A stretch of DNA of 64,000 bases from Botryllus schlosseri (Eukaryota), in assembly GCA_051294905.1 (NCBI GenBank), contig CM119372.1:5644001-5708000 (forward strand), in the 5' to 3' direction. The notes below the pieces were generated by a model. The model searched no databases and was not told the DNA's origin. It was given only the letters and a program-made list of their open reading frames with translations. The position numbers and the translations under genes are program-made. This document shows positions 60 to 63,399 of this stretch, piece by piece (position 1 is the stretch's first letter; each line of letters begins with the position of its first letter).

Positions 60-2941
60 ACGACAGCGTCACTTCTGGGACTTCAGAAGAATCAGATATA
101 GGTATGATCAAAACCAGCTATCATGTGCTACATCGAAAAGGTGCAACATGCGTAATTTTGTAGGCAATGAACAGGACAATGAATTTTTATGTATTCATCA
201 GTGTTGGGATGACTCGAGTCATGACTTGACTCGAGTCACACTCGAGTCACCTTTTTCGTATGACTTGACTTGACTCGAGTCACTTTGTCAAAATGACTTG
301 ACTTGACTTGACTCGGCGTATCAGAAATGTGGATTGACTCGTGACTCGAAGCAAAAATCACGAGTCAATTTCACGTCATTAAGCACTCGATGTCGATAAA
401 AATCACTGTATCTTGCAATCGGATTGTTCGCAAAACGCTAGTGTAACCCGTGAGATCGACCAATCATTCAATGATCGTGCGTTTTACTGAGCCTCCATTG
501 TTCTCTCACAAATAAATTGACCGCTTACGAAGTGATCGAAGCTTACAGCTTACGCTATCGTAAACTAGTATTGTAATGTATTTTAATAGAAAAATGTCTA
601 TTACTGTTCTCTGTACCTGAACCAAACCTCTTTCTTGAAATTAAATTCGAAGATAGTTTATATAGTCCTCGACCATTGGCGCAGGCTCGAATTGTATCAT
701 ATTCATTTGTAAATGTGTCATGTATTGCATCTTATCAATTCGTTTCTCTATTCTCTATATTGGCTGGTAATTATATACTGAGGCTTTGCCGTTATACTTG
801 CGTAGTTCAGCATTTCTACGTATATGTAAGCGATACAAGCGCCGTCTTACGTGTATATTTACCTTCATATTCGTTCATCGGTTCAAAATCAATGACCAGT
901 TAATCTGTATTTCAGACAGCTAGCAAAATGCAATGGCGTAGGCATTCGGAAAATGCAACTTGACTTGAAATGTGACTTGACTCGTGACTTGACTTGACTT
1001 GACTCGACTTGACTCGAGTCACCTTCGAAAATCGATTGACTTGACTTGACTCGAGTCAAAATGTGCAATGACTCGAAATGACTCGTAACTCGAAGGTAGT
1101 GACTTGATCCCAACACTGGTATTCATCGCTAGCTTCACGTAGAAATAATACCTTCTGAAATTGATTTTGTGACGACGATGAAACACAAAACTGTAGTCTC
1201 CAACAACTGACTATAACTTTCATATATTTCGCAAACGAAAACGACACATCTGGAACTTCTGGAGAAACAAATATAGGTATGATAGAAACCGGATATCACA
1301 TGTTACATCGAAAAGGTGCAACATAGAATAATGAGTGGCGCATCGAGTAAAAAACACGTAGCATCCTATAATGAACAACATTCCTATCAATCGAGAAATT
1401 CGAATCATATGTAGTTCGTCGTCATTCAATTGACATACATTCCAATTGTATTTTCAGTTGTAATCATAGTTCCGGTGATATTGGTCGCGCTTCTGGTGGC
1501 ATTGCTGGTTTTCTTATATTTCCGGTAATGTATAAATGTCCTGTCGCTAAGTTACGACATGTGTGACGACACTTTCATTTTACAGACGCCGCTCTCTCGG
1601 TGAAGAAGTAACAAGTAGTGCGGGTGAAAAGTAAAAACGAATTCTTGAGTTCTGGTTTCAGTATAATTGATAATAGTCATTCTTAGATGAGGCCGAAGCA
1701 ATCACCACTATTACAGAAAAAAATTAAAATGAAATTTGGCGGAATGATACCATTATATAATTGCTTAGTTCATGGACATCTGTTATGATCGATCGGACTT
1801 CTTCATTGTTAAATATAGTGGTTTAGCATTTTCTGTCACAGAAATGATAGATTTAATTGAGCATAGCAACGCTATCGACTACAAGTTGTGGAATGTTAGC
1901 CATTCGCACATATAAATTCAAATATCTTTCAACGACAGACCCACAGTGTCGCCATTGTCCTTGGGTAGCATATAACAACAAGGAACGCACGGATTTGTCT
2001 CCTAAAAATGTGCGACTCCACATATGTATCTAGATCTAGAAAGAGACTCCAAAAATGACGACCGACAATATTAAGGATTTGCAGAAAGTGCCATGGGCAT
2101 AAAACATTATATGTATACTTTACTTTGCAGGAAGAGCGAGATCTATGACACTGTTGAATTGGAATCTAAAACAGGTCAATGCAATGACAGCTATAGTCCG
2201 CCGCGTAAATCCGAACACCCTGTCGCGCCATATGAGTAACTATATACCTAGCCAGGATGAATTGGAAACGTAAATATTTCTTTAAACCTTAACAGATTCA
2301 TTGACGATGCTATCGCAAAGTCTGGAGAATATCACACTTTGAAATTGGACACAGTTCCAATGCCGTCTGATGGGGACGGATTATACAACAAGTAATCCAT
2401 GTTCTGTTCCTTTTCCACAACTGAATATTTAGATAAATATTATAATTGTGATCGAAGGTTAAGCGAAGTAACTGGAAAACCATGGACCGCAAACACAAAC
2501 GAAAATAAAGCTAATAAAGACGACCCATATGCTGAGTAATTACCGATGTTTTTATGAAGGGTTACCACGATGTTCGCAAGTACAGAATGCATACGAATTT
2601 CAGGATTAAAGATTCGAATGTCGAATCCCAAGAAGAAAACAAGGATTCTACTGTCGATGATGACGATGACTGCGCACGGTTATTGAGTGAAATAAAATTG
2701 ATAGTTACTGTACCTATAACGGAAGTACCTATTTTAGGTCTGATGAGAAATCCAATGCAGCTGGTGGTCCTGTAGAATCGGAAACCGATGGACGAACGAA
2801 TAATTATTTCGAGTAATCTTATACCTCCCTCAACATATGGACTCAAATAAGTCTCTTTGTTTTACATTCAGAATCAACCTGCCTAATACGGAAGATTTGT
2901 ACGCGCGACCAAACAAGCCGCAGACGTCTACTAATCAATAA
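60..2941 (+). CDS. 3' part of a spliced type-I membrane receptor: stalk, TM and tyrosine-motif tail (5' end outside window; integrity uncertain)
   Basis: Manually spliced GT-AG exons: 60-101 (DDSVTSGTSEESDI), 1458-1524 (TM VVIIVPVILVALLVALLVFLYFR), 1586-1623 (RRSLGEEVTSSA), 2131-2235, 2296-2391, 2458-2535, 2604-2678, 2738-2812, 2872-2941 (INLPNTEDLYARPNKPQTSTNQ*). Tail introns are 59-68 nt with consistent phases. Exons between 1687 and 2075 have weak or broken splice sites and are unresolved. Confidence 0.75.
199..1118. mobile_element. hAT-type MITE (intronic)
   Basis: TIR CAGTGTTGGGAT...ATCCCAACACTG; perfect 8-bp TSD gtattcat (191-198/1119-1126); subterminal GACTT/GACTC repeats. Confidence 0.92.
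1235..1276 (+). pseudogene. Duplicated 42-nt stalk pseudo-exon
   Basis: 1200-1324 is a diverged copy of 24-149. The ATAG|gtatga donor is kept but the acceptor ttcgcAG has become ttcgcAA. Confidence 0.65.
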
Positions 2942-5291
2942 CGAGTCACCCGAACTTGTCCGAACAGCGGAAGTCATTTGGGACGTTTGAACAGAAATAT
3001 TTATTCAGCGCATACATCGAGATTCATTTGAGTTTATTCGATAGGAAAAAAAGAACTAAATGACATTTGCTTTCAGAGAGCTTCTGATTCATGCGTGCAC
3101 AGACTTTAATATAAGCTTCGCTGTGGGCGCGAACTTGTTAATGTTAATTTCAAACACTACTTTGCTGATAGGAAAAAGGGATAGTTGAGGAACAATGTAC
3201 AGTAGTAATCAAAAGCGCAATAATATCATATCGTCATTGTATAGCTATCATATAATGCACTTCTCAATAGTGGCACTGTAGAAAATCTGTCTTAATTGAC
3301 CGTATTCGGAGTAACGACTTCAACATTGTAAGTCACTTCGATTTCAATCCTCGTTTCTCAGATTCAGAAGGCATGTTATACATGGCAAATGACATGACCT
3401 TATAAGGAAATATCTTATTTGCCATTAACATTGGTCTTTTCGTCGCACTCTGCACAGATCATTGACAGACAGACAGACAGACAGACCACGAAACATCAAC
3501 TGAAAGATATACTCATTCACGAGTTACTCTTAATTCAGAGAGCTCTTCTAGTCGGTGCAAGGTTCGGTATCCGTCAAAATCTAAACATAAGTGAATAAAC
3601 AAACAATAAATAGTACGACGCAATTATGAGATTAAATATCGTAATATATTTAGAACAGTGGTTCCCAAATGGTGGGGAATTCAATGGTTTATGGTGGGGA
3701 ACACGCATTTGCTCAAAATTACATACAGGACAGGCTACATATTGACGGAGACACATACGCAATTACCGTTACCAGTTAACTGCTCTGGAATGTATTTATC
3801 GAAAATTATATTGCGTGTCGTTCACAAAACCTCATTTTAACTCTGCAATGATGGCGTCACAAATGCATCCAGCACGCCTAGTTTTACGTGATATAGCTGC
3901 TCTGTGATGACAAAAGTGTTGGGTAGTGGGGAACAGGACCCCAACTGCCGCACTCCAAACTCTTCAATTGATGGGAGGGGCGAGCTCGAAGAGACCCAAA
4001 ATTATTTCGTGAATTAATATTAATTCCAGAGTATTTTGGAAATGTATGTCACTTTTTCAAATTTTTTCGGGTTGGGTGCGCGATTTAATATTGCCGAATA
4101 TCGTGATTATTGGGTACCCTTCCTCCACGAGAATACGTAGAATCTATAGGCCAGGTAACATGCGACTCCGTAAAGTGTGCCATAACGATCAGCAACGACA
4201 AGACCTTGGCCGAGAAGAAATGCCCTTGTGGTGACCGAAAACTTTAGTCAAACTATAGCTGTAAAACGTTATCATGATATCCATGGTTTAATCTCAGCAA
4301 GTCTGACACCAGCTTACTGGGTGCTTTCCAGAGGAATCCAATGCCAGGTAAGTATTTTTATATAATACACATTAATTAATTTTTTCATGTTCAAGATATA
4401 TTGCCGTAACAAAACTTATGTGCGTGTAACATATTTCCTATCGTGCAACACAGCAGCGCGCTGGGAATGCACACAATATAGACTAGCCTTATACGAATCA
4501 GAGACAAAGGATACCAAGGTATAGGCTGTGCACGATCATAACATCAATAAATCAATGCGCGTGAGCAATTTAGACAATTGACAAACAAACGTAATTAAGC
4601 GACACAAATAAGGAGCCCAGATCCATCGAAAAGTGCTAATGCGGAGACTAGAACAGACGATCCCGTGTCAATCCTTATTTCCTCGTGTGCTCTGCTTCCG
4701 TATTTATTCCATGTATTCCGTGATCTGCCCGACGCATGTCTTATTATTCTTTCCTCTCACGGTGTTTTGAGATCTATCGTCAATGGTCATATTACACCAA
4801 GCCGATATTGCTTATTATGATTCCTGATCTGCCAAATTGTAGCATGACTCATATAAGTCCTTAACTTTCTAAATACCACTTACGAGGACTTATTATGTCA
4901 CAATCCTGAGGTACATGATGGGTTTTTAAACATCACTAAATGCATCAAATGGAGCAATCAAATGCTGTAATAATCCCATAAAATCAATATCTTCCGTCGC
5001 TTTTCCAACAATTTCGATGAAGAGTTGCAAGGGAATATAAGCAAACGCCGTAACGGTCCAGGCCAGACCAGACAATGTATTCTGAGTATGACTATTGCTA
5101 CCTTGATATTGAGCAGAATATAAACTGGTTTGTATACTTGGTACCGTTATAACCCCATAAACGAGTTATGCAGTGGTCAACACCCCAATCGCACGGATTT
5201 TGATTTTATGATACAATAAAAATATCTGAAGAGCTTCTTGGAGGTACAGAACTTCAATATACAATTGAATAGTATATTCATATTGAAATGA

Positions 5292-5325
5292 ACCCGAATA
5301 TTTTCGGCTGACACTCGTCAGGGGT
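5292..5325 (-). ncRNA. Minimal hammerhead ribozyme motif (inverted-arm copy)
   Basis: Reverse complement of 5614-5647. Confidence 0.65.
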
Positions 5326-5613: not shown

Positions 5614-5647
5614 ACCCCTGACGAGTGTCAGCCGAAAATATTCGGGT
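5614..5647 (+). ncRNA. Minimal type-I hammerhead ribozyme motif
   Basis: ACCC-CTGACGA-G(tgtcagc)C-GAAA-ATAT-TC-GGGT: conserved core, stem I ACCC/GGGT, palindromic AATATT stem III. Confidence 0.65.
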
Positions 5648-7860
5648 TCATTTCAATATGAATATACTATTTAATAAAAATATCAAATCAAGATGGATCC
5701 ATGTACGCCTGTTAGATTTTAATATTCGACCGCGATTTATTGTTTATATAATTTGATTCGATTGGTTGCAAGTAAATCGTGATATACGAAAAAGGTTCAC
5801 AGTACGGAACCTACCAAGGTTCCTTTGTGAACGCGAACCTCTAAATTTCCGACGTTCACACACAGAACGCGAACGTTAACCTCACATTTACACCATCCCT
5901 AGTATCTTGCTCTTCTGTGTTAGTGACTACGTTGCTGAAAATTAAATCCATTGGCTTGGTATTATATGTTCTTCGTGCAGTAGTTTAATTTCAAGAAACA
6001 CATATCCATATCTAATGTGACAGGCCACGATTGAGCAACACCGATTAGCCTGCTAATACGACCGTAATCAAGGATGTCTATTGTCCATATTCAAGTCAAA
6101 AGTCAAACAGTTTCTACTGAATAAATTTTAATCATCGTTTGGTAAAAAGACTACAAGTCGATACGACTACCTCCTGTCTTTAAATTGGATTCTTGGTGTT
6201 TTGAGACCATGAAAATTATTATTAAACGAAATCAATGAAACTGTATGCAAATGTTTATTGTTTTGCAAATACAAAGGTAATAACAGTTCCCATAACGAAT
6301 CGTAGGCAAACATAGATAGCCCTTCGAAATGAAAGTAAATATACATTAACCATGTGGCGGAAATAATCGTAGCGTTTGTTTTAAGATAAACGATGATGTG
6401 GGTAATCCAGCAATCGGCGAAACAGTTAGGATATTGCCTATTGTTTTCTTTTGAGACGAGGCATTAGAAATTCCTTGGTAAGCAATCGTCAAGACTCGCA
6501 GTAGCATGCTATAAATCGCTCAAATGACCATCCTGAGATACATACTCTTTGTGATCTTCGTATTACGCATATAAGGGATATCTATTATTCTGGAATATAA
6601 AGTTTAAATAACGATATCATGGATAGTAATGAGATAGTGACATTGTTGGTGTATTGATTGCAGATTCAGTAGTTTTATTCACTATGATACCGCGCAAAGG
6701 AAGAAACCTTCATGCTTTTCATTCTGCATCTACTATTTGAAAAGTTTCCAAAACGTATTAACATACCCATGCCAGAAGAGTAACATCATCATTCTACGAT
6801 TATGACATCAGTGACGGATTTTACAAATAGGCCGATGCTGCTCCGCAAACCTTATCGGAACCCCAAGTTATTTTTCTGAGTCATAAAAACAAAAATCAAC
6901 CACGATACATACCTAATATGTTGCTATAGATTACTGGTGCACGAAATGAACTGTGCATCAACAGACTTTTAAGAGAACAACACCATTAAAATATTATTTC
7001 CATACAAAACAAAAACTTTACAATGAATAACTATTACTTCGAGTGTTCCCTTTCAGATACCAGTTCAGAAATGCGAGGACTCACCTTGGAAAGTGTCATC
7101 GTATTGTTCCGGCGAAAACGCAACAACGCGATACCAATTGTAAATATTGGAGATACAATTGACATTTCACGAGGACTGAATTCTGATTTTGAACCCCAAC
7201 ATCCCCTGCGCACGCCACTGCAAACGGCGTACCGCCACAGCAGTCCCAATGCGAGTACTGATCGGGCCTAATCCCCTGCAACCAATGATGGTCAATACGG
7301 GCGTGTCATCACAAATCATCTGTAATGACCTAGTGATCGTCGTGACCTCCAGGAAACCCCGAAGACTAGCTCAGGGAGGCCATGGTGTGTCAGGGAAAAC
7401 CGTTGAAGATCCACTCCACTGTCCTGCATGCTATCGATTATTCAATTATACTTATTGTTATATAGCCTGACAAATACAGCAGGTTCTAAAATTACGCGCC
7501 ATGCGATAATAGAAGGCCGGCACGTATACTTTGAATTGCAACCGACCCTGTTAACTAAATAATCTGACACAGTAAACTTGACTGTGAAGTCGGCTATCAG
7601 TATCATCAGTATATCACTCGTGATATCATCTTGTTAGTTACTATCAAGAAAGGTCACTAGTTCTGTATTTGGGGTTGCACTAAAACAATAGGTTCGATTA
7701 GAACATTTGTTAAGCAAATCCGATCTCAAAATTTTGTTTTAAAATATTGTATCATTATGGCACATTTGTCTAAATATACTTTCAGTTAACACACATGTAG
7801 GGTGAGCAACCTGCGGCCGTAGAAGGAAATTTTTGCGGCCGTGACGCCTAATCTAAATAG

Positions 7861-8612: not shown

Positions 8613-11600
8613 ATTCAGTGGTTCTCAAACTGAGGGGCGTGAAAGCATCTAAGGGGGCGCGAAACCACCCGAGAAAAATGATATTTCTTGCACTAGAATG
8701 AGTTTAATTTGTGCTGAAATCTCTGAGTTTCAATAACGACAATCATTCTGAATCAGTGGTTCCCAACCTTTTTGTCTTCATTCCCCGCTTCCGATTTATT
8801 CCGAGCCTTCACACCCCACAAAAACCGTAATCCGATCTGAAAATTTTATTTTAAAAAATTGTATAATTATGGCACATTTGTCTAAATATACTTTCAGTTA
8901 ACACATGTAGGGTGAGCAACCTGCGGCCGTAGAAGGAAATTTTTGCGGCCGTGATGCCTAATCTAAATAAGATGTGTTGGCGGCCGTCGACAGGCAAATT
9001 GAATTATTGATTAATTGAATTCAAAGTTTTCTTCGCGTTACGCGCGATTCAATGCTATGCTTCATAGTAGCGCCCTTTGCTAACTTAGTCTCACAGTACA
9101 GACGCGACCGACAGAGAATAATGATGCGCCCCATATAGGAATACAAATTCATAATCGTGTGCTTCTCACGAAAGAAATTTGTTCCTGGTAGGTTTAGGCG
9201 ATTCCAATATACTTCCACTGTACCTTACCGATAATCCTGATGGGAGGTCAAGAAATAACAGCATGCAACAAAGTGACTAATAATAATTGGTCCAGCCGAA
9301 GGTGCATCATCATGTGAAACTTGCCCTAAATTTAAGAAGCTAAAATGTTGGGAGCATAGACTGACGTTCGAAAAACGAGAGTAACCGATTGTGGGAGAGC
9401 GCGAATGGATGCCGCATTACGTAATATGACAAAAAAAAACAGACCGGAAAGAGATTAATCTTAATGATATTACCGTTGTGAGCCCAAATGACGTTATGGG
9501 CTATAAGCGCCAATGTTCTGAAGAATATTACAAACAAAACAAACAAACACCTCATCCATCATCTCCATCAGTGAATCTGATCATATGGTCTGATATTAAA
9601 GGATAATTATTTGATTTTATGATGTGAATCTACTAATATTATTGGCGAAAATAATTTGTCAATGTGAAAAAATGCGAATAGTAACCGATATGAGAAAGTA
9701 GATTAGCCCGGAGTTCACCGGAGATGATGGACATGAATGGTTTAACATGGGTGTTTGGCGCCCAGTTAGTTAATTACGGCTTATGCACTGGAATGCGGTC
9801 GTAGGCTACAAAAGTAATCGAAATGCGGCTGTGAATAGCAAAAATGTTGCTCTCCCCTGATTGTAATATATGACCCTTCCGAAGACTTGCACTAAAATTT
9901 GGCCAATTTTTGACACCGTCGTTGGTTCATCAGTTCTTTAACCTGCTGCTGCCGCTAATTTGTTTTGCTAGACACACTGTGTCTCAGTCACGCAATCAAT
10001 CTATGCAAATGATGAGCTGCGATAAAGTGAAAGCAGTTGAATACGAATTAGATAAAAACATCTGGAATTTCTGCATATCATATCTATGGTAGGGAAGCTC
10101 ATAGAAGGCTTCAATCTGAGATTACAGTATAGCAGACCGGATTATAGGCTATAAATAGGGATGGTGCGAACATTGGGGTCATGCTCGTGTTTGGTGAAGG
10201 AGCCGGTTCTACGCCATTGGTGTTCAACATTTTCGCCAAATGGCGACATCTTTAAACAAATGATTGCGCGGGTCATTTGAGTGTTTACTGCTAGTTTGTA
10301 TACTTCGAAATTGCTATGTCGTGATTTCTTATTAAGACACTCACTCCTAATTTCCAACGATGGCAATGTGTATTATCCTGTCAATGCCACAACTCAGTCG
10401 AAAACAAACTCTGTACCGTACATCAACCGTGTTGACATGGCGAGATAACGTAGTGGTAATAATCCACGGCTGCAATACCAGTAGGTTGCGATTTCGAGTC
10501 CGACCGAGATCGACTCCAGAATTCAGCTACGGAACAAAATCGGTGAAAATTGGCCTGGTGTAAATTGTAGTCGACAAACACCATGAATAACACAAACAAA
10601 CCTTGTTGACTGTTTTTGACATTGTTAGACATTGCCCAGTTATTTTACATCACCACCATGCCATGCTTCGAAATTTGTCTGGAATTCACACCTTGACTAT
10701 CGAGAGGGAATAGTTAGTCATTAAATCTTCAATAAATTATTGAAGCGTTACCTGTGGTTTTTATGTATATCTTATATATTTTATTATCTACCGTAGCCGT
10801 TGGTATTCAAAACGTTTTGAAACTTCTCCCCCAACAAGGTCCACTCTTCCGAAATATTATTGTTATTGGACAATATATATACTCAAACTTTTCATTTCGT
10901 TTATTAGATGCAGACGGTAAGTGACTTAAGTCCACGATGAAGTCTGCCAAATAGTTTCTTCGTCCGTAAGTAAGCATCACCTTATCTCATAGAAGATATG
11001 GATCGGGAATGGCAACCAACGCTGTTGACTGGTGATAGCTTTACTATCTCCATCTGATTATCTGCGCCATGAAACCTATCATCAGCAACACCGTATTCGT
11101 TATCATAACAATCCTATCACGTCAAGTCCTCGCTCGAGGTTGGTATATCTATCTATATGGGCGAGGTACCGACGCCGTACATTTCAGAGATCGAAGAATG
11201 AGAATACAAATCTTCATCTAAAACCGCATTATTCGAGAACTTATGCTGGCGAGTCGAGTCAATTCAGGATGAATGATAATAATCCCGGTGAACGCATAGT
11301 GTTGTCTAGCTAGTACAAGTATCGTACAGTATTGCATCTTAGCTGCCTATTGAGGAGGGCGCGAGATATACCAAGATTCGCTTGAATTTGATGTAGGCCT
11401 ATGAAGTAAAGTCTATAAAGTAAAGTATATAAAGGTTTGTTGCTCATCGATACCACTTATAGTTTGGAACGCAGTCCGTGACGCGCTCATCTTTATCGAA
11501 TAGCATGTATAAAGACACTCTACTATCTTTACCTACCATGGTCGAGCTGGGACAATATCTGCTGTTCATAAGAGCACAGTCAAAATTCAAAAACGAAAAT

Positions 11601-13977: not shown

Positions 13978-14198
13978 GAGAGGTACACAACTTCAATGTA
14001 CAAATGAATAATATATTCATATTGATATAAACCCGAATATTTTCGGCCAAGATTCGTGAGGGGTGATCGTCATAAGCTAGCAGTAGAGACTAACCAAATA
14101 TTTGGTGATACGATTGTTTATGTTCTTTTCAATTCCCAAACTATAGTTGCCGACGATTACCCCTGACGAGTATATTGTATTTCGACATGAATATATTG
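13978..14198. mobile_element. Degenerate copy of the palindromic Penelope-like pLTR element
   Basis: Matches 5241-5345 and, at its right end, ..gacgattacccctgacgag (5607-5625). Confidence 0.65.
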
Positions 14199-14864
14199 TC
14201 CAATTTTATCGGACAGCATCTGTCAAATAAGCAATGCTTTGTAACTGTTGAAATCATATTCTACTTCACACATCCACTTTTTCAGCGCAATTACATTAAG
14301 CTTTTTCGATCAAACATAATCTGGGTGGTTTTGCGACTGGATGTACAGGAAGTTTGAAGCAATAAAAGACAGGCATTCCGCTTTTTCTTCTTCAACTTTC
14401 AGCACGATTATGGATTACGTTGTATCACGCTGCGCACTGGTGAACAGCAAGCGATCAATCAAGTGTTCGCTGCGGGATTACGGGGAAGATTCGCGTAACT
14501 TTCTGCGCCGCTGTTGACATAACCTCGTAAGCCCCAGCGAAAAGAAAACTTTCGTGCTTTCGAGATTATCGAATCGCTGTCCGAAAGATTTGGAGACGGT
14601 TTATATGAAAAACGTGGCGAGGGGCGCTCATTGATCACCACGGACAAGGTAACCTGCTGTTTTTGGTATTCACGGTGTTTTTTGACTGCATTTACACCAC
14701 TTCCGATATTATTCATGATGATTACGCATCTGCCGTAGCACGGCTCACTACTGGGCGTTTTAAGACACCGCTTCCGCGGAACGGATTGCGAGGCGCGGAG
14801 CCTCCAACACACAGGAAAAGATTCTGGAGCTAAACTGAAGTATACAGCCGTTACTATTACCGTT

Positions 14865-16905
14865 TTAGTGATGTTTATTCAAATATGTACATAAAATATC
14901 AAAAATTTCAGAAATAAAATCTTTCCCCATCATCGGGTCATCTCGTCTCAGCCGTTGCTGAAGTAGGATTTGTATACGCGGTCGTAGTAGACGCCGTCGT
15001 AAGTTGGTGCTCGTAGTCGCTCGGCTCATCTCATCGCAGCAGTCGATGTCGATTCGCGGTCGTAGTAGGAGCCGCCAGTACTTGGCGCTCGTTTGCGTGT
15101 GATTTTCATATAAATTTGGTGGAGTGGTGGTGGGTGGAGTAGGAATATGGTAGGGGTGGGTGGGGTAGGAATAGGATAGGGGGGGGTGGTGGATAGGGTA
15201 GATTTGGGGGTGGGTAGGTGGTGGTTTAGGGGGGGTTAGAGTGAGATGGGATGGGATGTTCGGGTGGTTGGGATAGGTTGCAGGTGGATTGGTTGCGTTT
15301 TGTGGGTCGATAAATGCAATGTGATTTATCGCGCGAGCGTTTAAACGGCTCGCTTAAATTATTCGGTATATTTTACTTCTTATATCGTTGATGCGTTGGT
15401 CAATATTTTGGGCGTATTCATTTTGTATGTCGAGTGCATTTTTCCATTCCCACACAAGGGTTTTCACGTTCATAAAAGCTTGTATTATAGTCGGAGCTTG
15501 CGGTCCGTCGTATACGTTGCGTATGATCTCGTCGGGTGTAGCGTCAATAGTCGTTTGCAGGTCGTTCTCGAGATCCTGTATTACAAGAGAGAACAGTTTT
15601 TTGTAAGTTGCACATTCGGCGAAAGTGTGACGCAGAGTGTCTTCGGCGTGTTGGCAGAATTTGCATTTGTTTTTCAAGTAGGCGTCTTTTCGTCGTACCA
15701 AGCCTTCGTTGGTTTTTCTGGAGCCTGTAAAGTAGCTCTCAGTGTTAATGCGATACGAAATCTCACGTTTCTTGTTGTCAATGTGGTCTTTGATATTGGG
15801 TTGGTATAGCCATATCTCTTTCCAGTCCGCCATGCGGCTTCCTCCTTGTTGCGTCTTCGTTTTAACAAGGATCTGGTACATTTCTTTCTGGCTTAGTTCT
15901 TGTATATCTTGTGATTGGCTTTTAATTACGTCGAAGATTTCCTTTTCCTTCTTCCATTCCTCCGTCAATGTATTTCTGTGAGGGCAGAGGTTGTTGTATA
16001 AATTGCAATTTATATCTCTCACCTTCGTTGTTAGATTGTATATCGCTTCTGCATGCCAGATATCGATCGGGTGCTCCAGTCGACTGAGTTGTTGTAGTCT
16101 TTTTGCTCTCTTCGCTTGTGCTGCAGATTCGATATCTGGCATATCAATTCCTCCTTCTGGCTTAGGTCTGATAAGTTGCATTCTGCTTTTTTGCTCAAGT
16201 TTCTCAGGACTCCACAGTAGGCCGAAGACGAGGAGTTCGAGTTTTTGAGCTTGTCGCCTGGAATTTTCTTGTTAGCATATGTATAAGTTATTTTGCCAAT
16301 TATGTATGCCTTAATCGCCGTTATTTTACCAATCCAAGAAAGTCGTTTTGATTTAATATGCCTTACGCTTTTCTCGACTCCTTGCCAGAGTCTGTCAAAG
16401 TTCATTTGCAGTTCGCTTTCTCCGTGGTATAAGCCCAGTATCTTAATTACCGGCTTTAGCATATGTGCGTGCGCAGTTTTTTGCAGTCTGATACGTGATT
16501 TTTCGTTCAGCGGTAGGATTTCCGTCTTGTCTGTGTTGATATCTTGACCTGTCACTCTATGCAAGCTTTGATATTCGTTAAAGACTGTGGTAATAGAGTC
16601 AGTTGTTCTTAGATACAGTGTGACGTCATCAGCAAATTGGTCTAATTTATGCTCTATCCCGCCGATTCTGATGCCTTTGATCTTGTCGTTGGTGCATAAC
16701 CTGTGGGCTAGCGGGTCTGCGCTAATCGCGTATAGCGTCATACTCAAAGGACATCCTTGTCTAATGCCCCTTGTACAATTTACATTGGCTGCTTGGAGAC
16801 CGTTAACCTCGAGGGTTGCAATAGGATTATCATATATGGCTTTGATCACTTTAAGAGTTTCTTCCGTGACGGGCAGTTTGTCAATCACTTTGAGGAGCAT
16901 TACCA
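14865..16905 (-). mobile_element. 5'-truncated L1/Tx1-clade non-LTR retrotransposon (RT plus C-terminal CCHC), one frameshift
   Basis: RGIRQGCPLS and QFADD in ORF 16031-16900; PKPEGG and CKFC..H..C in ORF 15354-16181; frameshift at a T-run near 16245; C-rich 3'UTR; AATAAA near 14875. Confidence 0.9.
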
Positions 16906-17189
16906 GGCCATGATCTACAATATCGACATACCGTTACATGGCACACTCATTTTCATCGCTAGGCTTTTTACGGTCAGTTCAATTACCTTTCATCCTGTGT
17001 CCCATTCGTACCTCTTATTTCCTTACTGTAGGCTTAGGTGGGTGTCTGATTCTAACACTACTGCAAGTCGGAGTGAGAAAGATAACATATTTATTATCGT
17101 CTGCTTTGACTATGGAGATGCGATATACCATTTAAGTAAGGTTCAACCCACGACCACCACGTCACCTCGCTCAGTAAGGAAGTACTTAA

Positions 17190-18626
17190 CCCTTTGTAAC
17201 CGGCCGGCCTACTGACCAAAATTTTACTGCATCCACATAGAAAACGATAAAATGTCATCCATATGGCTTAAATCGACGCCCAATATATTGCCGTAAACCT
17301 GAAGTAGCCGCCTAGCGGTCTGAGATACTCTCACGGCTCAGACGCCAGAGGGAATAGCGTTATGCGAGAAAATGTTCGCGATTTCTTGAAAATAAATTAC
17401 AATTTTGTTCTTCTATATCTCCTGACGTCATACCTAGGCCCTCTCTTAGTATATGACCACCATTGATTGCCTTCCGCATGAATCTCTACGTTCCAACGAG
17501 ACATTACATGCTACCATAGCGCTTCATAGCCCAGCGCTACGATCTTGGAAAGGTAGTGATGATGAGCACAATCACGCGGCCGCCGCCGATGAGTAATCGA
17601 TTACGTAATCTCGTATTCTCGTTGAAGGCAACGCGCGTCCAGTTGTGCAGAACATAGGAACTGCCTTGGCAATGTTGCCGTTAGTATAAGCCTACATCTC
17701 CATGCTATTGAAGTGTTATCAACCCCAGTTGCTTGTTATATGTAACTTGCAGCTGCAAGGAATCCGTAAGTATACACATATTGCCTCATTCGACACTGTC
17801 CAGTGCCCATATACGCTCGGGAAGTTATTTCACGTGATACATTGCTTTATTTCGCATCAATTTGAACTGTATTCTACACGGCTAATGCTCCATGTATGAT
17901 CAACAGTAGTCATACAAGCCAACAGTAAATTCGTGTGCCATCTAAAACAGATATATAACTGCCTCTATATGATGTTGTTATCACAGGCTCGGGTACAAAA
18001 ATAGCCTAACTCGCACGCTTATTTGTGCGGTGTTAGGGCTGGTGTCGGCTTTCTTATACAAAACTAAGCTCCATGATATGGATATTGATGGATATGCCAG
18101 GATAATGGCTAACTATATGCATAATTTGCTATTGCCTGAAGCAATTGTACATCTGTTTGAAACCGCAACGAGTCAGGTCATCTTACGCAGCCATGATTTT
18201 CACGTAATAAGGTATGCTTCTTTCACGTCAATTTGAAACATCTTCTACGTGCTAATCTTCGATATAAGGACTTTCATAGAATAGTATGACCAACAACAAG
18301 TCATAGAAGATAACTGTAATCGGTTATATGAAGTCTAGAACGGAAGATACAATGGTTTATATTTCAGGCGGTCACTCACGCGAACATCATTACAAATTCA
18401 ATTTTGCGGGAAACCTTTTTGCGTGTTCAATCTGCATTTCAAGCAGGATATACATTGCAGCATTAGGTTATACATGGTCTGATGTATGCGTATTTATAAG
18501 AGCTATACATACCAACCGATTGCAATCGTTTATGACCAATACAGGTCTAGCTATCTTGGATTAAATATCGACTCCTCTGCGTTAAACAGTCGCGGTCTAG
18601 TATACTAGACCGCCGGTCGCAAAGGG
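17190..18626. mobile_element. Non-autonomous piggyBac-type element
   Basis: TTAA|CCCTTTGTAACCGGC...GCCGGTCGCAAAGGG|TTAA; no transposase seen. Confidence 0.7.
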
Positions 18627-18696
18627 TTAAGTCGTTTCGACACCCTCCTATCATTTCATTGCATCGCAATCTTGACTGACTGACAAGGTATATGTT

Positions 18697-20092
18697 CAGA
18701 CTTGTACAAACTACTGAATTTTCAAAAAGCGCAACTAGAACTAGAACTAGAACTACTCAATTTTTAAGACTCGCAACTATAACTATAACTAGAACTACCC
18801 AATTTTCAAATTACGCAACTAGAACTAGAACTAGAACTACTCAATTTTCAAAACTCGCAACTATAACTATAACTAGAACTAACGAAATTTAAATATCGGC
18901 AACTAACTAACTAAAACACAACTAACTAAATTTAATTCTCAATCAACTCATTCTTTTTTATTTTATTCGAATTCGGCGTTCCAGACTTCCACATGAACGT
19001 CGGTACAGCGAAATTACTGAAAAATCAGACATACAGAACTTTTCTGTAATCAGTACGGAATAAACTAAACCATTTTCTGCAGCGGTTATACTGATTGCAG
19101 CGAATCAACATGAGTCGCGAAAATGATTTTCCGTTGAATTTTGCCCTCTTTGGGGAATACAAAATCCCAGCATGAGAGAAAGCTCTTCCACTGGGCGCAG
19201 ATGTCGCAGTCATCCCAAGAAAATCTTTCGCCAAGTTCCGTAATTCTGGCAAGTCGGTCATATTCCGCCAACAGTTTGGCACATTCTGACTCAGGAGTAG
19301 TCGCTGTTCCCTGGCATACTTTTTCACCTCATACGGGCCGGATTTAACTTCAAGCGGACGACACTGACTTGGAGATAGAAAGTTGAAGAGTGAGATTTTC
19401 GGTTACTTGTGAGTTGGAGAGCCAGGAGGAGACGACCCAGGCAATTTCTGCAATTTCCTTTGTAAAGATACCTTGGGCGAATCCAGATCGTCTTCTCTTT
19501 GTGCCTGGGCAGGCGTGGTCGGCATCATCATCACGAATCAAATCTCGTAAGTTTAACAGACGCGACAGCTTAGTTCCGAGACAATACTCGCCAGCGCACA
19601 GCAGGAGATCACTAGTTCACATTCCAATTAGTAAACAACCTCAGCGGGAGATCGCGTGTCCCTGCGCACTGTCGATTGTTGTAAATTTGCCAGGTTATCA
19701 GTGAACTCGGCATAATCAATGTATTAACTATGATCCAACAATGAGCATTTGATCCTTTGTCATGATCACATTAGTAACCCTCAGTAACCTCACTTGTCAC
19801 GCGAGGAGAGTTCTCCTCGCGCAGGGCAGGACACACGAGTGTTTTCTAGTTGTTCGGCAACTAATATTTTTTTGAAATGCACAACTAAAACTAGAACTAG
19901 AACTACGGAATTTTCAAAATCTGCAACTAGAACTAGAACTAGAACTACGGAATTTTCAAAATCCGCAACTACAACTAGAACTAGAACTACGGAATTTTCA
20001 AAATCCGCAACTACAACTGGAACTAGAACTACTCAAAAAACTGTTAGTCAGTTGACCGTCAACTAACTAAATGTTTAGTTTGTACAAGTCTG
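18697..20092 (-). mobile_element. Internally deleted hAT transposon
   Basis: TIR CAGACTTGTACAAACTA; TSD tatatgtt on both sides; AACTAG subterminal arrays; hAT dimerization remnant (LAKDFLGMTATSAPSGRAFS) at 19025-19327. Confidence 0.93.
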
Positions 20093-29537: not shown

Positions 29538-30534
29538 CAGTGGTTCCCAACCTGTGGTACGCGTACCACTAGTGGTACGCGAAGGTCTTCCAGGTGGTAC
29601 GCGAGTAGATTCTGTTTACACAGCCAAAATATTTCTGACTCCTCCAATTCCAATTCGTTTTTATCGTAGATTTTGCACTGTCGGTGAACTTATCATTCGA
29701 TATTTTACAGCTTCTAGTCTACTTTATAGGCCTACCATTATAGACGCCCAATGTCTGCTCATCGTGAATCATAAACGGTCAAACGTAACAAATAGGTTGA
29801 CAATTGACATGGTGTTATGGTCAACGTAGCGCAATATCCTAACTGAAGTAAGGCTGCTTGGGCATTGCATGGTTCTTATATCAAGAAGCGAAAAATTGTG
29901 ATGTAGACTGCATTGTCACAATGAAGCAGCACGGTTTGTCATCAGCAGTGTACGCACAACTTCAGTGTTGTCAACCAACAACTGCTGCTGTTGAACGTTC
30001 TTTCTCCATTCTTGGCAAGCTACTTAGTAAAGACAGACACTTTCTACCCCAGAATGTAGAAAAGTATCTTTCGTTGTACTACAACAAGTTTCAATTACTT
30101 CTACCATAATACGTAGAGTGACTACTGGAATTCTTTATAGCGCCAGATATCCTTAAAACAAAGTTTTATGATGTAAATATTTGTCAGTTTCCAAGTCAAA
30201 AACGCCTTTTCAGGCCAAACTACTTCGTAAGGACATACTCTCCCATTCAGAAATGAAGTAGTACAGTTTTAACATCATGCGCAAAAACACCTACTTTGCA
30301 TACGTGAGGTCAAAATTTGCTAAAATTTAAGTTTTTTAGGTCAAAATCCTCCATTTATTGAGTAAAAAATCGCCATAGCTATTACACCACATAGGTCAAA
30401 TACGTGATTATGACGTCATAAATGGTGGAAACATTTTTGACCGCCTACGGCGCGCGTAACTTATGTAGGTGGTACGCGAGCACTGCATAAAACCTCCAAG
30501 TGGTACGTGGGTGGAAAAAGGTTGGGAAACACTG
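29538..30534 (+). mobile_element. Internally deleted hAT element
   Basis: CAGTGGTTCCCAACC...GGTTGGGAAACACTG; TSD atatacgg; remnant QPTTAAVERSFSILGKLLSKDR. Confidence 0.92.
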
Positions 30535-41500: not shown

Positions 41501-41573
41501 CTATCACACAAAGGATCATCAATGTGGGATTTGTGGGAAAGAAATGTGTGGAAAGAGTTGACTCAAGATTCAT

Positions 41574-43118: not shown

Positions 43119-43780
43119 TGTGATGTCTGTGATAAAGAATTCACGCGAAATAGTGACTTCAAGTCACACTTGGTTATGCATGCAAGTATCAAAGGCCATA
43201 AATTAGAAATTTGTGGACAAGATTTCTCGTGAAAGAGTATTCTGAACCGACACATGGCTATTCATACTGGATTTAAATGCCATGAATGTGAATTTTGTGG
43301 AAAAGAATTCACACACAAGAGTAGTCTGCACCTACACATGACTATACAAATACACACTGGCATTAAATGCCATAAATGTGATGTTTGTAGTAACGAATTT
43401 TCCCAGAGGTCCAATTTCAAGACTCATATAGACGACGTACATGCTGGTGGTAAAAGCCATAAATGTGATGTCTGTGGTAAAGAATTCACGCGAAAAAGTA
43501 ACTTAAAATCACACTTGGTTGTGCATAAAAATATCAAAAGCCATAAATGTGCTGTTTATGGGAACGAATTCAGACAAAAGGGTCATCTCGAGACACACAT
43601 GAACGTACATGCTGGGGGCTGGTGTTCGAAACCATGAATGAGAGGTTTGCGGTAAAGAATTCACGGTAAAGGACAAACTCAAGATACATATCGAGGTGCA
43701 TGCTGGAATAAAAAAACATAAATATGGGACTCGTGTGAATTTGCATGCTGGTATCAAAGATCATAAAAGAATTCTACGAA
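43119..43780 (+). pseudogene. Decayed continuation of the C2H2 array (~7 fingers)
   Basis: Stops, Cys losses, small insertions and a frameshift near 43620; includes ORF 43254-43637. Confidence 0.85.
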
Positions 43781-46092
43781 GGCTAACCTTGTCAATGAAG
43801 TATTACTGAGAAAGAATTCGCTCAAATGACTGTCTTCCGGATTCCTATATTTATGCATGGCAGTGGTGTGATTGTTGTCTCAAATTACATCTTCCCTTCT
43901 TGCTAACTATTGGTTCCAGGTTTTGTTAGGAGTGGTGATTTCGTTGTGTTATCTGTTCATCTCCGTAATTTCGTTATCAAACACTTGGCACAGTAATGTG
44001 ACCGATTTCATTTGTATTGTTTCATGTTTCCTTTTATCCCTGCAATTGCACGAATCTGTACTGCTCACTCAATTGTGACATGATTGTTCAGATTTCTTTC
44101 AAGTACCCTTTAACCCGGCAGATTATCTGATCATCTGTACTTTCGGGTTGAAATCAAACTTTTCGAGAAATATCGGTTTCGGCCATTGGAGGTAAAAAAT
44201 ATGGGCACTTTTTGTGACCTCACGGTATGGCAGTTGGGGGTCAGTGAGCTATCATCTGCGACTACTAGACTGGGGATATTGATTTATTTCTTATAACTGA
44301 CAGGCTGATGTGGTCGAAGTGGACATCGATGGTATCCAAGTAGAAGCAGAAGTAACTTGCATTTCTATTAAAGTTAGAAGTGCTGATTTCCGATTATGTT
44401 AAAAGATTAATATTCTCAGCCTGGTTTTGTCTATATACTGAAATCTCTTGACAAGTAGTCAAATATCATAGCCGCTTGAATAATAATTGCACGTAGACAG
44501 ACTTACTTGAGTACTTTGAAAGAGTTATGAGTAGTTCGTTACTTAACATATATGCTTACAGCTTCCCAGATGCAGCCTTTCTAGTTTGTTTCAGGTCCTG
44601 TCCAAACATAGTAATGGCTGTAGAGCTGTTCAAGTACACGCTCCGAAGTTTTGGCAATTGGCCCTAAACTAGACACTACATTTTGATTAGATCGGGGTTA
44701 TCGATGAAGGTGCCAGATATCGTTATCGGCTCAAAAATCCGATATCGACCGGCCTATACTTTAAGCAGCACCGCTTTTTCGTTTATTAGAGAAACTTTTA
44801 TACCTCCATTTTTGTCTTCTTTTTTGCAGTCATGGTTATGGTGATGATCCTCCATCGTTGCTTCCCGTCTAAGTTGTGCATATGATACTTTTAGTAACGT
44901 TGTCAACTTTTTCGATGACCAATTTGCTGTCAGTATGCGACATTTATGTGGGTTAGATTTAGGGTTATGGTTAAGGTATAAATAAGGGATAATTTCATGA
45001 CTAGGTTTATGGCTAGGGTTTGTTTTGGAGTTACAAATACACATGCTCAAGTGACGCATGCTAAAGTGTGACATCCTTAACTGCCGTTTTTCATTGAGTC
45101 GCATGCTCATTGCTCATATATCAGGCAACCATGGGAACACGCTGTATAATCTATATCACCTATACCTCGTGATTTTCGTTCTGTATTATCATATGAATTG
45201 GCATAAATAATCTCGCTGTATTTCAATTACATGTAAGACTCACATGCATCCTATTGCACATTCATATTGATTCGACCAATATATTCATCCGAGGAAATAC
45301 TTCGTCGTATGCATCGTGTTCTGTCAGATCAAGAGCTAACGCAGCGCCGGTTGACCCAGCTGTTGCGAGTTGAATAATCGTTATATCCACATTTCACAAT
45401 GAACTCGCGTCAATATCGCAGGCTGTCGGACAAAACAACCTATGTCTTGCGTAATTTTCCCTAGAAGCTACGCGCGAGTGCACTGCTGACAAAGTATAGC
45501 ACAGAAAAATGTGTGCCGCGCACAAAAAAATCCACCTGTGATCACTACATCTTGATGATCATTAGACCAAATTGAAGACCATTTCGGATGTACAAATGCA
45601 CATCACAAATTTGTAATCAGTAATTCGTAGTTAGAAGAAGCGACACTATCTCTTTTTGCATAAGATGTATTAAAATGAGCTAAAACTCGAGTCTGTCGCA
45701 ACGAACGCCAGATTGTCGCAAAATTCGGCGATATTATCGTAAAAAAGTGGGTAATGCGTTTGAGTCGATCCGGGGCGTACGATATCGTTAATGGATGAAT
45801 TCAGTCAATAATATTGTTTCCCGGAACTGTCTCGTTCACCCCATAGATCAATCAACCGAACCATAGATCAATCAACCGAACTTCTGGAGGGCTTCTCTCC
45901 CTCCCATCTCACGGCTACTCGAAAGCCCTCTCATGACTAAGTTTTGTAAATAATATTAGTAATTGCATATTATACAATTGCCCACTTGATCTGAGCTACC
46001 GGTAGAGCCAGTTCTATATATCCCTGGGTAGAGCTAAGGGAGGTGGGCTTCGAAAGTGCAGGGCACGTTATTGATACACAATCAAATAAGTA

Positions 46093-52415: not shown

Positions 52416-52629
52416 ACGGTGTTATCAGAAACATATATAATTGCTTCTTCATACGAGAAAAGTTTGGGATCTTTGGATTTTCCGTCTCATTTTACACCAT
52501 CAGTATAAAAGTAATAAAATTATCATATAATATTGTGTTATATCATGTAGTAGAATAAATATATAAATATTGTGAATTGCAACCAATTGCTGTCATCTTG
52601 GTGGGATCTGGATTTGCTATACTTGCGTC

Positions 52630-52708
52630 ATGGATTCTGCGATAAGCCGTGCCATACTCGGTATGATAACGATTTACCTATCATACTGTCGTCACGTCTT
52701 TGCTGCAG
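52630..52708 (+). CDS. Putative signal-peptide exon
   Basis: MDSAISRAILGMITIYLSYCRHVFAA + G|gttagt (phase 1); acceptor ctttacag follows at ~52806. Confidence 0.5.
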
Positions 52709-52906: not shown

Positions 52907-54309
52907 GGCCCTGTGGATATAAAGCTGTATCAGCTGTACCAGCTGTATCAGCTGTATCACTCTGTGGATATAAAGCTGTATCAGCTGTCTCACCCTGTGG
53001 ATATAAAGCTGTATCAGCTGTATCACCCTGTGGATATAAAGCTGTATCAGCTGTATCACTCTGTGGATATAAAGCTGTATCACCCTGTGGATATAAAGCT
53101 GTATCAGCTGTATCACCCTATGGATATAAAGCTGTATCAGCTGTATCAGCTGTATCACAGCTGTATCTCGATCTTATAGGCCGATTTTATCATGAATTAT
53201 TGAAAATTTTTGCGCTTCACGCTGGCTTACTAAACATTACAACAATAATTTCGTGGCAATAAAGCGAACAACGTGATGGGGGACGTTTTATCACCGTATA
53301 AGAGCCCAAGATACCAGGTTTTTGGGGAGCCTGACGAAGTGCTGTTTCGTTCCTGCCAACGGGTATACACACCCGGTGACCCGGAGATGTTTAATTAATT
53401 ATTATTCGAGGGCTCCTACCTTTTGAGGCACACCTCACTCAGCTCTACCAGCAGCCGGTAGCCTAAATTAGATTACGTGAGCAGAGAGACGTTATAAAAA
53501 TTGATAGCAATCTATATGCAATTCCCGATCATATATTGACCGACTCAATCATGAAATATAGAAATTTCTCTTTCTTCGCGCGTGTGGGCGAGTAGAGCTG
53601 ACTCACTAAATGTGTGACAGCCTACTAGACTATTTCGCACATCCCAGACATAGTATAGACCTGATACTAATTGCAGAGTGATACCTGGGTGAATCTCGGT
53701 ACGGCTTGTCTATAATAGTGGTTCACCACCTTTTTTTTTGACGCGCCCCCCTTTTTGATAGTGAAAAATTTCGCACCCCCCTTATTGTCATATCACAAAA
53801 TCCAACTGGGATGCTAGCAACCCCAACAGATTGTTTGGTGGTATGGTCGGTTATGAATGTTGATGAGAGAATAAAAAATATGAAATTGGGTCTATATAGA
53901 GAGAAACACACCTGCATTGGAGGCAAATCGCGCTCTCCAGGTTGAGAACCCCTGGTCTATAATATGGGAGCAGCGATGATTCTCAAAGTTAAAAGTAATT
54001 AAAAAAATAATAATAAAAAAATCAAGAATTGTTTGAACACAAGACACAGATTCCATACAGGTAGAGTGATACAGCTGATAGAGCCGTGTTACAGCTGATA
54101 GCTGATACAGCTTTATATCCACAGGGTGATACAGCTGATGCCTGATACAGCTTTATATCCACAGGGTGATACAGCTGATACAGCTTTATATCCACAGGGT
54201 GATACAGCTGATACAGCTATATATCCACAGGGTGATACAGCTGATACAGCTTTATATGCACAGAGTGATACAGCTGGTACAGCTGATACAGCTTTATATC
54301 CACAGGGCC
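52907..54309. mobile_element. Foldback (MULE-like) element with minisatellite TIRs
   Basis: GGCCCTGTGGATATAAAGCTG termini; 9-bp TSD gtttgaaag; ~250-bp inverted arrays of a ~33-bp unit; interior made of MITE fragments. Confidence 0.92.
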
Positions 54310-63020: not shown

Positions 63021-63054
63021 TCCCCTGACGACGGTCAGCCGAAAATCTTCGGGA
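63021..63054 (+). ncRNA. Minimal hammerhead ribozyme motif (diverged)
   Basis: TCCC-CTGACGA-cggtcagcc-GAAA-ATCT-TC-GGGA; stem I covaries with the 5614 copy. Confidence 0.55.
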
Positions 63055-63132
63055 ATTAACATGAATATTTTATTCAAATGTGTTATGACATGTGTATAAA
63101 CGACGAATGACAATGTACCGTACATCCGACAG

Positions 63133-63399
63133 ATGACCTTTCTTTTTACGGCGATGCTGATGGTGGATGTAAAATCATCGCTCTTGACAGTGGCGACAAT
63201 GTGCTATGTCGGTCAGCATCGCACCAAAGTGTAACGTGGTGGTATGACGGAACGCCAGTGCCGGAGTATGGCTCAGGGAAACCTGTTGTACAAGCGGATG
63301 ATCGATTATACTTTTACGACTTCGTGACTGTGGATAATTCTGGTGATTACTACTGCAGGTCTCTATCAGAAGCAAAATTATTGCAAGTCTACATTGTAG
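63133..63399 (+). CDS. Intact Ig-superfamily domain exon (phase 1-1)
   Basis: ccgacag|..NVLCRSASHQSVTWWYDG..LYFYDFVTVDNSGDYYCRS..LLQVYIV G|gtaagt; 267 nt open; B-strand Cys, C-strand Trp and DxGxYxC-like motif. Confidence 0.85.

Follow-up and report, generated by a model that had tools for sequence, protein, structure and literature searches.

The DNA analysed here, called the window, is a stretch of 64,000 nucleotides (nt) from a sea squirt of the Botryllus type (G000:C2:5644001-5708000, on the contig labelled C2 of an assembly of 495.5 Mb; positions are those of the window, and negative coordinates lie upstream of it). It has a G+C content of ~40% and contains no N. Its plus strand carries exons of two members of what is probably a small family of receptor-like genes with a single immunoglobulin (Ig) domain and tyrosine-motif tails. 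One of them, named U6, has its Ig exon just upstream, ending 0.6 kb before the window, and its transmembrane (TM) and tail exons inside the window, at 1458-2812; the other, named U7, is the owner of the window's own Ig exon. The exons and the other elements found are collected in Table 1.

Table 1 Exons of the receptor-like family and other elements of the window. A slash marks an exon border.
Feature	Position	Strand	Description
TM exon of U6	1458-1524	+	(V)VIIVPVILVALLVALLVFLYF(R); phase 1 in, 2 out; acceptor ttttcag, donor CG/GTAATG
Possible alternative mini-exon	1586-1607	+	22 nt, RRSLGEE; AG and GT conserved in both paralogous copies
Tail exon A	2131-2235	+	KSEIYDTVELESKTGQCNDSYSPPRKSEHPVAPY; YDTV; phase 2-2; splice sites and frame
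Tail exon B	2296-2391	+	FIDDAIAKSGEYHTLKLDTVPMPSDGDGLYN; YHTL, YNKL across the junction; phase 2-2
Tail exon C	2458-2535	+	LSEVTGKPWTANTNENKANKDDPYA; DDPYAEI across the junction, resembling a hemITAM (the hemi form of the immunoreceptor tyrosine-based activation motif); phase 2-2; acceptor putative
Tail exon D	2604-2678	+	IKDSNVESQEENKDSTVDDDDDCA; acidic; phase 2-2; both borders are GT..AG joints
Tail exon E	2738-2812	+	SDEKSNAAGGPVESETDGRTNNYFE; acceptor confirmed by a joint
Scrap of family promoter/5' leader	7533-7556	+	no start codon follows
Orphan first exon with conserved promoter block	11007-11138	+	coding sequence 11069-11138, MKPIISNTVFVIITILSRQVLAR; donor G/GTTGGT; phase 1
Reverse-transcriptase fragment	16034-16933	-	Pfam, RVT_1 above cut-off
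hAT dimerisation remnant	19028-19402	-	Pfam
hAT dimerisation remnant	29852-30106	+	Pfam
C2H2 zinc-finger array	41562-43806	+	Pfam; interrupted by stops at ~43116 and ~43635
First exon of U7	52574-52708	+	coding sequence 52630-52708, MDSAISRAILGMITIYLSYCRHVFAA; donor G/GTTAGT; phase 1
Ig-domain exon of U7	63133-63399	+	267 nt, 89 codons; phase 1-1; acceptor cag/AT, donor G/GTAAGT
Stalk exon of U7	65236-65325	+	downstream of the Ig exon, outside the window

The Ig exon of U7 sits within an open frame at 63111-63500 and encodes the hallmarks of an Ig domain, C...W...DxGxYxC. The genome holds eight copies of this exon (all 8 candidates scored, E 4e-54 to 3.5e-14), seven of them on the plus strand within 186 kb of C2, at -123, -116, -94, -65, -10, -0.8 and +63 kb, and one on the contig C14. 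All eight are stop-free and have conserved AG acceptors and GTAAGT/GTGAGT donors. Six of the eight matches appeared to have stops inside; these are GTAAGTAA-type donors translated beyond the exon end, and a pseudogene reading of the six was rejected. An alignment of the eight exons has 25 invariant columns, including C26, W36 and S70-G71-D72-Y73-Y74-C75 (SGDYYC), and the Ig exons of neighbouring units are 50-71% identical at the amino acid (aa) level. With an Ig profile, 270 proteins were matched at E<=1e-3 among 1.84 billion representatives, mostly giant multi-Ig proteins. The best matches were titin, hemicentin, Robo and neurotrimin-type proteins; all five matches that were scanned for families carried Ig families, and one match was an unnamed 95-aa member of the family from a public assembly. 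In the PDB, 35 sequences were matched at E<=1e-3, including a titin Ig domain (3b43, 2.7e-7), Fc-gamma RIII domain 1 (Fc-gamma RIIIa, 5e-6), IL-1R, FCRL5 and CD3. Because of these matches to Ig proteins and to Ig chains of the PDB, the exon is, by sequence profile, an I-set/C2-like Ig domain of predicted fold. Searches for homologues in longer proteins with the Ig exon, the Ig alignment and the open reading frame (ORF) around tail exon B found nothing and, therefore, gave no full-length or transcript-derived protein that would show how the exons are joined.

Each Ig copy is preceded by a promoter and a signal-peptide exon of its own. A unit starts with a conserved promoter-like block of ~200-400 bp and, behind it, a first exon that has an ATG, encodes a hydrophobic leader and ends in a GT donor of phase 1; all nine copies of this first exon keep the ATG, the frame, the phase-1 end and the GT donor. 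The first exon of U7 lies 10.4 kb upstream of its Ig exon; in the stretch from -237 to +85, counted from the start codon, the C14 copy is the one most like it. Behind the orphan first exon there is no Ig exon for 52 kb. Just downstream of the U7 first exon, a 33-bp tandem repeat forms two arrays (52941-53148 and 54104-54307) in opposite orientation, ~1 kb apart, which translate as GDTADTALYPQ repeats and are probably the ends of a DNA transposon. Every Ig exon is followed by a short stalk exon, or by two, rich in Ser/Thr, which have a conserved Cys, phase 1-1 and a GTATTA-type donor. Beyond the stalk exon, colinear blastn downstream of U7 and of the C14 copy gave nothing, and Pfam, run on 122 of the 243 ORFs in these two regions, found no Sushi and no further Ig domain.

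The TM exon of U6 encodes VVIIVPVILVALLVALLVFLYF, which is the strongest hydrophobic frame of the window. It has one close paralog, at -35612 (86% aa identity), and structurally alike TM exons are found at -105.4 and -138.4 kb. These two further TM exons (C2 -138465..-138000 and -105453..-105307) have the acceptor context CCTTTCATTGCAG and run from phase 1 to phase 2; the one near -138 kb is followed by a frame ending ...TYEATEGSETYDNSPTITSSDVPEYE and, therefore, a different tyrosine tail may serve other units. In the unit that bears the TM and tail exons and is complete, the interval from Ig to TM contains a 66-nt stalk exon and repeats only. The phases fit throughout, from the signal peptide (1) over Ig (1-1), stalk (1-1) and TM (1-2) to the tail (2-2). 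The predicted tail has ~145 residues with five YxxI/L/V motifs (YDTV, YEFI, YHTL, YNKL and YAEI) and an acidic stretch. Exon E meets a TAA at 2814-2816 if unspliced, and its GA/GT donor at 2812/2813 may lead to a further exon. Inclusion of the mini-exon at 1586-1607 would possibly bring an early stop in the next exon and thereby a short tail free of tyrosine motifs.

Everything from the stalk to ~5.9 kb also occurs, as a segmental duplicate with ~80% identity, at -40 to -22 kb; tail exon B shares 97% aa identity with its only other genomic copy. The sister tail at -34.9 kb reads V-L-Y-D-T-V, which is an ITIM (immunoreceptor tyrosine-based inhibitory motif) of canonical form. The window's tail reads E-I-Y-D-T-V, and residue -2 of its other YxxI/L/V motifs is A, G, G and D. 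The forms nearest to a hemITAM ([E/D][E/D][E/D]xYxxL) and to an immunoreceptor tyrosine-based activation motif (ITAM; YxxL/I-x6-12-YxxL/I) are K-D-D-P-Y-A-E-I and YHTL followed by YNKL 14 residues on, respectively. Within the intron between stalk and TM exon lies a high-copy repeat at 13-1348, with a summed contig depth that reaches ~1.8e5 in one of the runs. Short direct duplicates lie at its borders, since 77-123 and 1214-1320 both match the same place at -36.9 kb.

One raw RNA run (X23) and three contig sets were aligned to a 10-kb locus (L031) that spans the complete U6. A GT..AG joint from 2535 to 2604 (L031 8535 to 8604), which had been predicted beforehand, was found in X7 (two contigs) and X20 (one contig), and a second GT..AG joint from 2678 to 2738 (L031 8677 to 8737, cut one place right) was found in X7, X20 and one raw read of X23. 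Thus, the tail exons are spliced, as the GT..AG joints demonstrate. One X20 contig spans exons C, D and E, its match ending at GA/GT at 2812 with 14 letters remaining; an X5 contig starts at 2738 and continues to 2901. A further X7 contig of 389 letters covers the Ig exon of U6 from its first base to 2 bases short of the predicted end and continues with 121 letters that are unlike the intron behind this exon.

The exons of the family are under purifying selection. Pairwise ratios of non-synonymous to synonymous change (dN/dS) of the Ig exons had a median of 0.52 (28 of 28 pairs) and ranged from 0.30 to 0.99, plus 2.54 for the youngest pair; 24 of the 28 pairs fell between 0.3 and 0.65. With simulated neutral change of 10-25% per site, all seven other Ig copies stayed stop-free with P <=5e-5, a value that is rough owing to their shared ancestry. 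The tail exons gave a dN of 0.066, a dS of 0.173 and a ratio of 0.38 against their only paralog (exon A: 4 synonymous and 4 non-synonymous changes; exon B: 5 and 1), and the intron differs between the two copies at 112 of 582 aligned sites. In the youngest Ig pair, at -116 and -65 kb (L004, L005), dS was 0.035 and dN 0.090; the ratio of 2.5 could reflect diversifying selection or, given the few changes, chance. Signs of turnover are the orphan first exon, the promoter scrap at 7533, mosaic duplicates and repeat insertions such as that at 13-1348, and a stalk-like piece near -40 kb is found without an Ig exon of its own. By Ig and stalk sequence the units group as {-94, -10}, {-116, -65}, {-123, -0.8} and {+63, C14}; the TM/tail blocks group differently. 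Birth-and-death evolution is the best reading of the family.

Much of this agrees with the original prediction, which had been made for the same DNA from the sequence alone and had described a receptor cluster in birth-and-death decay. Its TM receptor with a tyrosine-motif tail corresponds to the plus-strand exons at 1458-2812 with their two GT..AG junctions, and its intact Ig exon to the exon at 63133-63399, whose end is exactly the end coordinate given for the predicted cluster and whose hallmarks, eight copies and profile matches are given above. The signal-peptide exons it had seen are matched by those at 11069-11138 and 52630-52708, both of which begin with an ATG, stay open and end in phase 1 at a GT donor. 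A multigene cluster of Ig receptors with tyrosine motifs and with birth-and-death signs (orphan exon, promoter scrap, mosaic duplicates, repeat insertions) was likewise recovered, and the paralogs that it expected genome-wide exist, the Ig exon having eight intact copies in all and the tail two. The heavy load of transposable elements that it reported is borne out by a reverse-transcriptase fragment, two hAT remnants and a share of 48.8% of the window that has a non-self copy, the comparison covering only 294 kb of sampled genome.

Other parts of the prediction found no counterpart. A dead Ig exon of this family was not found in the window by tblastn to E 10, by a six-frame motif scan (the single hit was the intact exon) or by an nhmmer nucleotide profile. 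Among the ORFs, none had several convincing hydrophobic spans, as the proposed multi-TM pseudogene and its paralogous fragment would demand. Two minus-strand frames that look like multi-TM proteins, at 19793-20032 and 18550-18756, were rejected as translations of 42-bp tandem repeats that flank a hAT remnant; these are probably the frames that had been described as the pseudogene and its fragment. Instead of two classes of receptor genes on opposite strands, all receptor exons lie on the plus strand and the minus strand has transposon hits only. Receptors in activating and inhibitory pairs did not emerge from the analysis either. No feature was found to start at base 60, where the cluster had been said to begin; 13-1348 is the high-copy repeat described above.

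The prediction had named the Fester and FcoR genes of botryllid ascidians as the likely identity of the cluster, with an analogous undescribed system as the other option. FcoR were described in Botryllus schlosseri by Rodriguez-Valbuena et al. (PNAS 2025, PMC12582321). According to that paper, FcoR have the order signal peptide-Ig-Sushi-Ig-Ig-TM-tail, with tails that carry ITIM, hemITAM, 'core-1' YxxI/L/V or paired 'core-2' motifs, and the Fester family (FF) proteins are Ig-Sushi-3TM proteins that lack tyrosine motifs and have a highly conserved C-terminal half; chromosomes 5 and 11 hold FF/FcoR pairs in head-to-head order, and chromosome 9 holds a cluster of FcoR alone (PMC12582321). A degenerate pattern of the fester TM motif had a single match in the genome analysed here, on the contig C11. 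There (L033, G000:C11:26498001-26508000), three minus-strand exons encode a C-terminal half of the fester FF1 type with three TM helices (...EKLDGCSKAAFTITIVGCILTVIFAITVACAMKKMWRFKK; EPASKMFYLGFVAAAAASVLAIGLLFGST; ACVAATIIGAIGSCSMLLVTGLYAREAM). They are nearly identical to the published C-terminal half of FF1/FF2/FF6, bar a Cys-to-Ser exchange in the poly-Ala helix, so that the assignment of the DNA to a botryllid is upheld and its source is Botryllus schlosseri or a species very near to it. A degenerate pattern of the FcoR motif NLQCWSAP had no match in the genome; the motif probably spans a domain-boundary intron.

We regard as extremely improbable the reading of the locus as part of the fuhc-type allorecognition system, namely as a Fester-family/FcoR haplotype in which an FcoR gene is paired with a multi-TM Fester gene on the opposite strand, although the same genome has FF1-like exons on C11 and although the window's family resembles FcoR in many respects. 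Both are clustered type I receptors of the Ig superfamily in which a signal peptide precedes an N-terminal Ig domain, a single TM helix and a tail with at least two tyrosine motifs (core-1, and ITIM in some), spread over many small exons; both form tandem clusters with changes in copy number and intergenic recombination, and in both the ITIM is present or absent between sister genes. In addition, an FcoR-only cluster that lacks FF partners has been reported (PMC12582321). A signal peptide with an N-terminal Ig domain was found in the family generally; a single TM with a tail of >60 aa and at least two tyrosine motifs was found in only 2 of the 8 units. However, the window's family has one Ig domain and a short Cys-containing stalk in place of Ig-Sushi-Ig-Ig: neither a Sushi nor a second or third Ig domain was detected in 557 ORFs of the window or in the 122 ORFs downstream of U7 and the C14 copy, and the Ig-TM interval of the complete unit has the stalk exon and repeats only, though very divergent Ig exons could escape these tests. 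The 557 ORFs are those compared with Pfam out of 570 stop-to-stop ORFs of at least 45 aa, the other 13 being antisense frames within the zinc-finger array; Pfam cut-offs were passed by three kinds only (the reverse-transcriptase fragment, the hAT dimerisation remnants and the C2H2 array), and no Ig, Sushi or 7TM family scored above its cut-off in any of the 557. A match to 7TM_GPCR_Sru at 14109-14354 (E 0.0098, 15.7 bits against a cut-off of 26) was at chance level and was rejected.

The FF side of such a haplotype was not found either. The window showed no 3-TM gene and no FF-like exon, and no such exon precedes any of the nine first exons. C2 does not have the conserved FF TM2 motif; the genome's single FF-type motif match lies on C11, whereas the window's family lies on C2 and C14. 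Apart from the shared genome and the N-terminal Ig-like domain, the family differs from the Fester family (FF1/fester, FF3/uncle fester) in that the Sushi domain, the three TM helices and the conserved C-terminal half of FF were not found in the window; it differs from FcoR in that no head-to-head FF partner was found and in having no 'core-2' [A/D]VYxxV pair. In the published FF/FcoR sequence file (sd01), none of six motifs of the window's Ig family and no 'YYC' was found, but line breaks in the PDF may hide a motif. The family is thus set apart by architecture and motif search and not by alignment, and a very distant relation to FcoR is possible. Of the two options raised by the prediction, the haplotype is therefore largely set aside, as neither a Sushi domain nor a further Ig domain nor an FF partner was found, and the analogous, undescribed system stands: the family is apparently undescribed and is analogous to Fester/FcoR without being a member. 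The literature on Botryllus, in the portions at hand, gave no description of another Ig/tyrosine-motif family.

Similar in general build are teleost NILT/NITR and mammalian TREM, CD300, NKp44 and PD-1-type receptors, single-Ig immunoreceptor multigene families of vertebrates. They share the signal peptide, the single Ig domain, the stalk, the TM helix and the tail with ITIM-like or YxxI/L/V motifs, and also clustering, fast evolution and ITIM differences between sister genes. Unlike these, the window's Ig domain is I-set/C2-like in length (89 aa) and not V-type, its TM helix is without the charged residue that marks an activating partner, and the sequence relation goes no further than the generic Ig profile. 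Fc-gamma RIII, FCRL5 and titin gave the best PDB profile matches of the window's Ig; the likeness is that of a single generic Ig domain (24-34 bits), and the architectures are unrelated.

Two further explanations take the exons at face value to different degrees. One sees in the cluster a graveyard of duplicated exons, a dying family that makes no functional proteins. The orphan first exon, the promoter scrap, the stalk-like piece near -40 kb, the failure to find a TM exon for U7, the repeated DNA that makes up about half of the window and the very low RNA depth would all fit. We nevertheless hold it to be very unlikely, since all eight Ig exons and all nine first exons are intact and keep their splice sites, dN/dS lies at 0.38 in the tail and at 0.3-0.65 in 24 of the 28 Ig pairs, the neutral chance of staying stop-free is at most 5e-5, and spliced contigs are present. 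The other grants that the genes are real and sees ordinary adhesion-type or secreted Ig proteins whose tyrosine motifs serve sorting or endocytosis. Here, the I-set/C2-like domain with its best profile matches to titin, hemicentin, Robo and neurotrimin-type proteins, the majority of units, in which no own TM exon was found, and the want of a canonical ITIM or ITAM in the window's copy are in favour, as is the use of YxxI/L/V as an AP-2 sorting motif. Against it stand the fast divergence (50-71% aa identity between neighbours, dN/dS 2.5 in the youngest pair), the expansion in tandem with loss of copies, the canonical ITIM in a sister tail, the profile matches to Fc-gamma RIII, FCRL5 and CD3 and a many-exon tail like that of FcoR, features which, by analogy, are typical of immune-type receptor families; we regard this explanation as unlikely.

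The reading that we favour, with somewhat better than even confidence, is that the window holds the downstream end of a tandem cluster formed by a small single-Ig receptor-like family with tyrosine-motif tails in a Botryllus-type sea squirt. A number of findings weigh against it. No link of the family with immunity or allorecognition was found. A canonical ITIM, ITAM or hemITAM is absent from the window's tail, YxxI/L/V is also an endocytosis signal recognised as an AP-2 sorting motif, and the tail exists in only two copies genome-wide, that is, in 2 of 8 Ig units; hydropathy scans at two thresholds found no TM exon within 15-20 kb downstream of the U7 Ig exon or of the C14 copy. The Ig exon alone stays below all Pfam cut-offs (five Ig-clan families, E 0.011-0.17). 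An AlphaFold model from eight sequences is all-beta with 8 strands but poor (predicted local distance difference test score 50.1), and, in a Foldseek search with it, no match reached E<=0.001; nearly all of the weak best-ranked rows were Ig domains. Regarding the transcripts, runs X7 and X20 are only presumed to be RNA, and X7 also has a contig in the intron behind the Ig exon. In exon D, the contigs depart from the window's sequence at as many as 7 of 74 letters (the contig spanning exons C, D and E) and, therefore, they may stem from an allele or the sister copy. There was essentially no RNA depth over the TM exon and tail exons A and B in X23 and the contig sets, no RNA support for the mini-exon at 1586-1607, and no join from Ig or stalk to TM among the joints and contig pieces listed; because of this, we infer the full gene model, the Ig-to-TM join included, from phase compatibility and exon order.

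An immune or allorecognition role of the family would be plausible. As a likely mechanism, the variable Ig domain would bind a ligand at the cell surface, and the stalk Cys may give disulfide-linked dimers. A Src-type kinase would phosphorylate the YxxI/L/V tyrosines, to which SH2 proteins would then be drawn. The docking site for an SHP-type phosphatase may be the sister copy's ITIM, and that for Syk- or Grb2-type adaptors the DDxYxxI and YxN motifs. Since the phase is the same in all tail exons, these could be skipped with the frame preserved, which would alter the set of tyrosine motifs. Growth and decay of the family would proceed by local duplication, recombination and repeat insertion.

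The order of the elements on C2 allows a bolder idea, which we consider quite unlikely: a miniature locus of the protocadherin or UGT1A kind, in which variable cassettes, made up of a promoter of their own, a signal peptide, an Ig exon and a Cys-stalk, would share one downstream constant block for TM and tyrosine signalling. Three times, two cassettes are followed by one TM block (-129 and -121 kb, TM at -105 kb; -96 and -82 kb, TM and tail at -36 kb; -13 and -5 kb, TM and tail at +1.5 kb). All cassette exons are of phase 1-1, and a live donor closes every stalk exon; hence, receptors with one Ig or with two Ig domains, all with the same signalling tail, could arise by promoter choice or by exon inclusion. 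If true, the shared constant block would amount to germline-encoded combinatorial receptor diversity in an animal famous for allorecognition.

Botryllus is a chordate model of natural transplantation reactions, and descriptions of its known receptors, the Fester family and FcoR, date only from 2024-2025. With one more clustered and fast-evolving Ig family, the set of candidate receptors outside the mapped FF/FcoR clusters would grow; the features of interest in this respect are the tyrosine-motif tails, the ITIM that one sister keeps intact and the other has in altered form, and the tail of frame-compatible mini-exons. The family of single-Ig receptor-like genes would also offer a small and tractable example of the birth and loss of such gene families. 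ORF-based annotation misses these genes, and the protein collections searched hold no full-length relative.

The reverse-transcriptase fragment is part of a non-LTR retrotransposon fragment (long terminal repeat, LTR) at 15357-16933 on the minus strand, which has RVT_1 and a weak zf-RVT in two overlapping frames, that is, with a frameshift. A minus-strand ORF of 222 aa at 20212-20877 had no usable match in a protein-collection search. The hAT remnant at 19028-19402 is flanked by the 42-bp repeat arrays, at 18709-18935 and 19875-20032, whose minus-strand translation (VVLVLVLVA...) mimics a multi-span membrane protein. The C2H2 array has 17 zf-C2H2 stretches in a frame of 518 aa, followed by two shorter frames; it is built from 84-bp units in ~24 copies and lies inside the gap of 52 kb that separates the orphan first exon from the last Ig unit.

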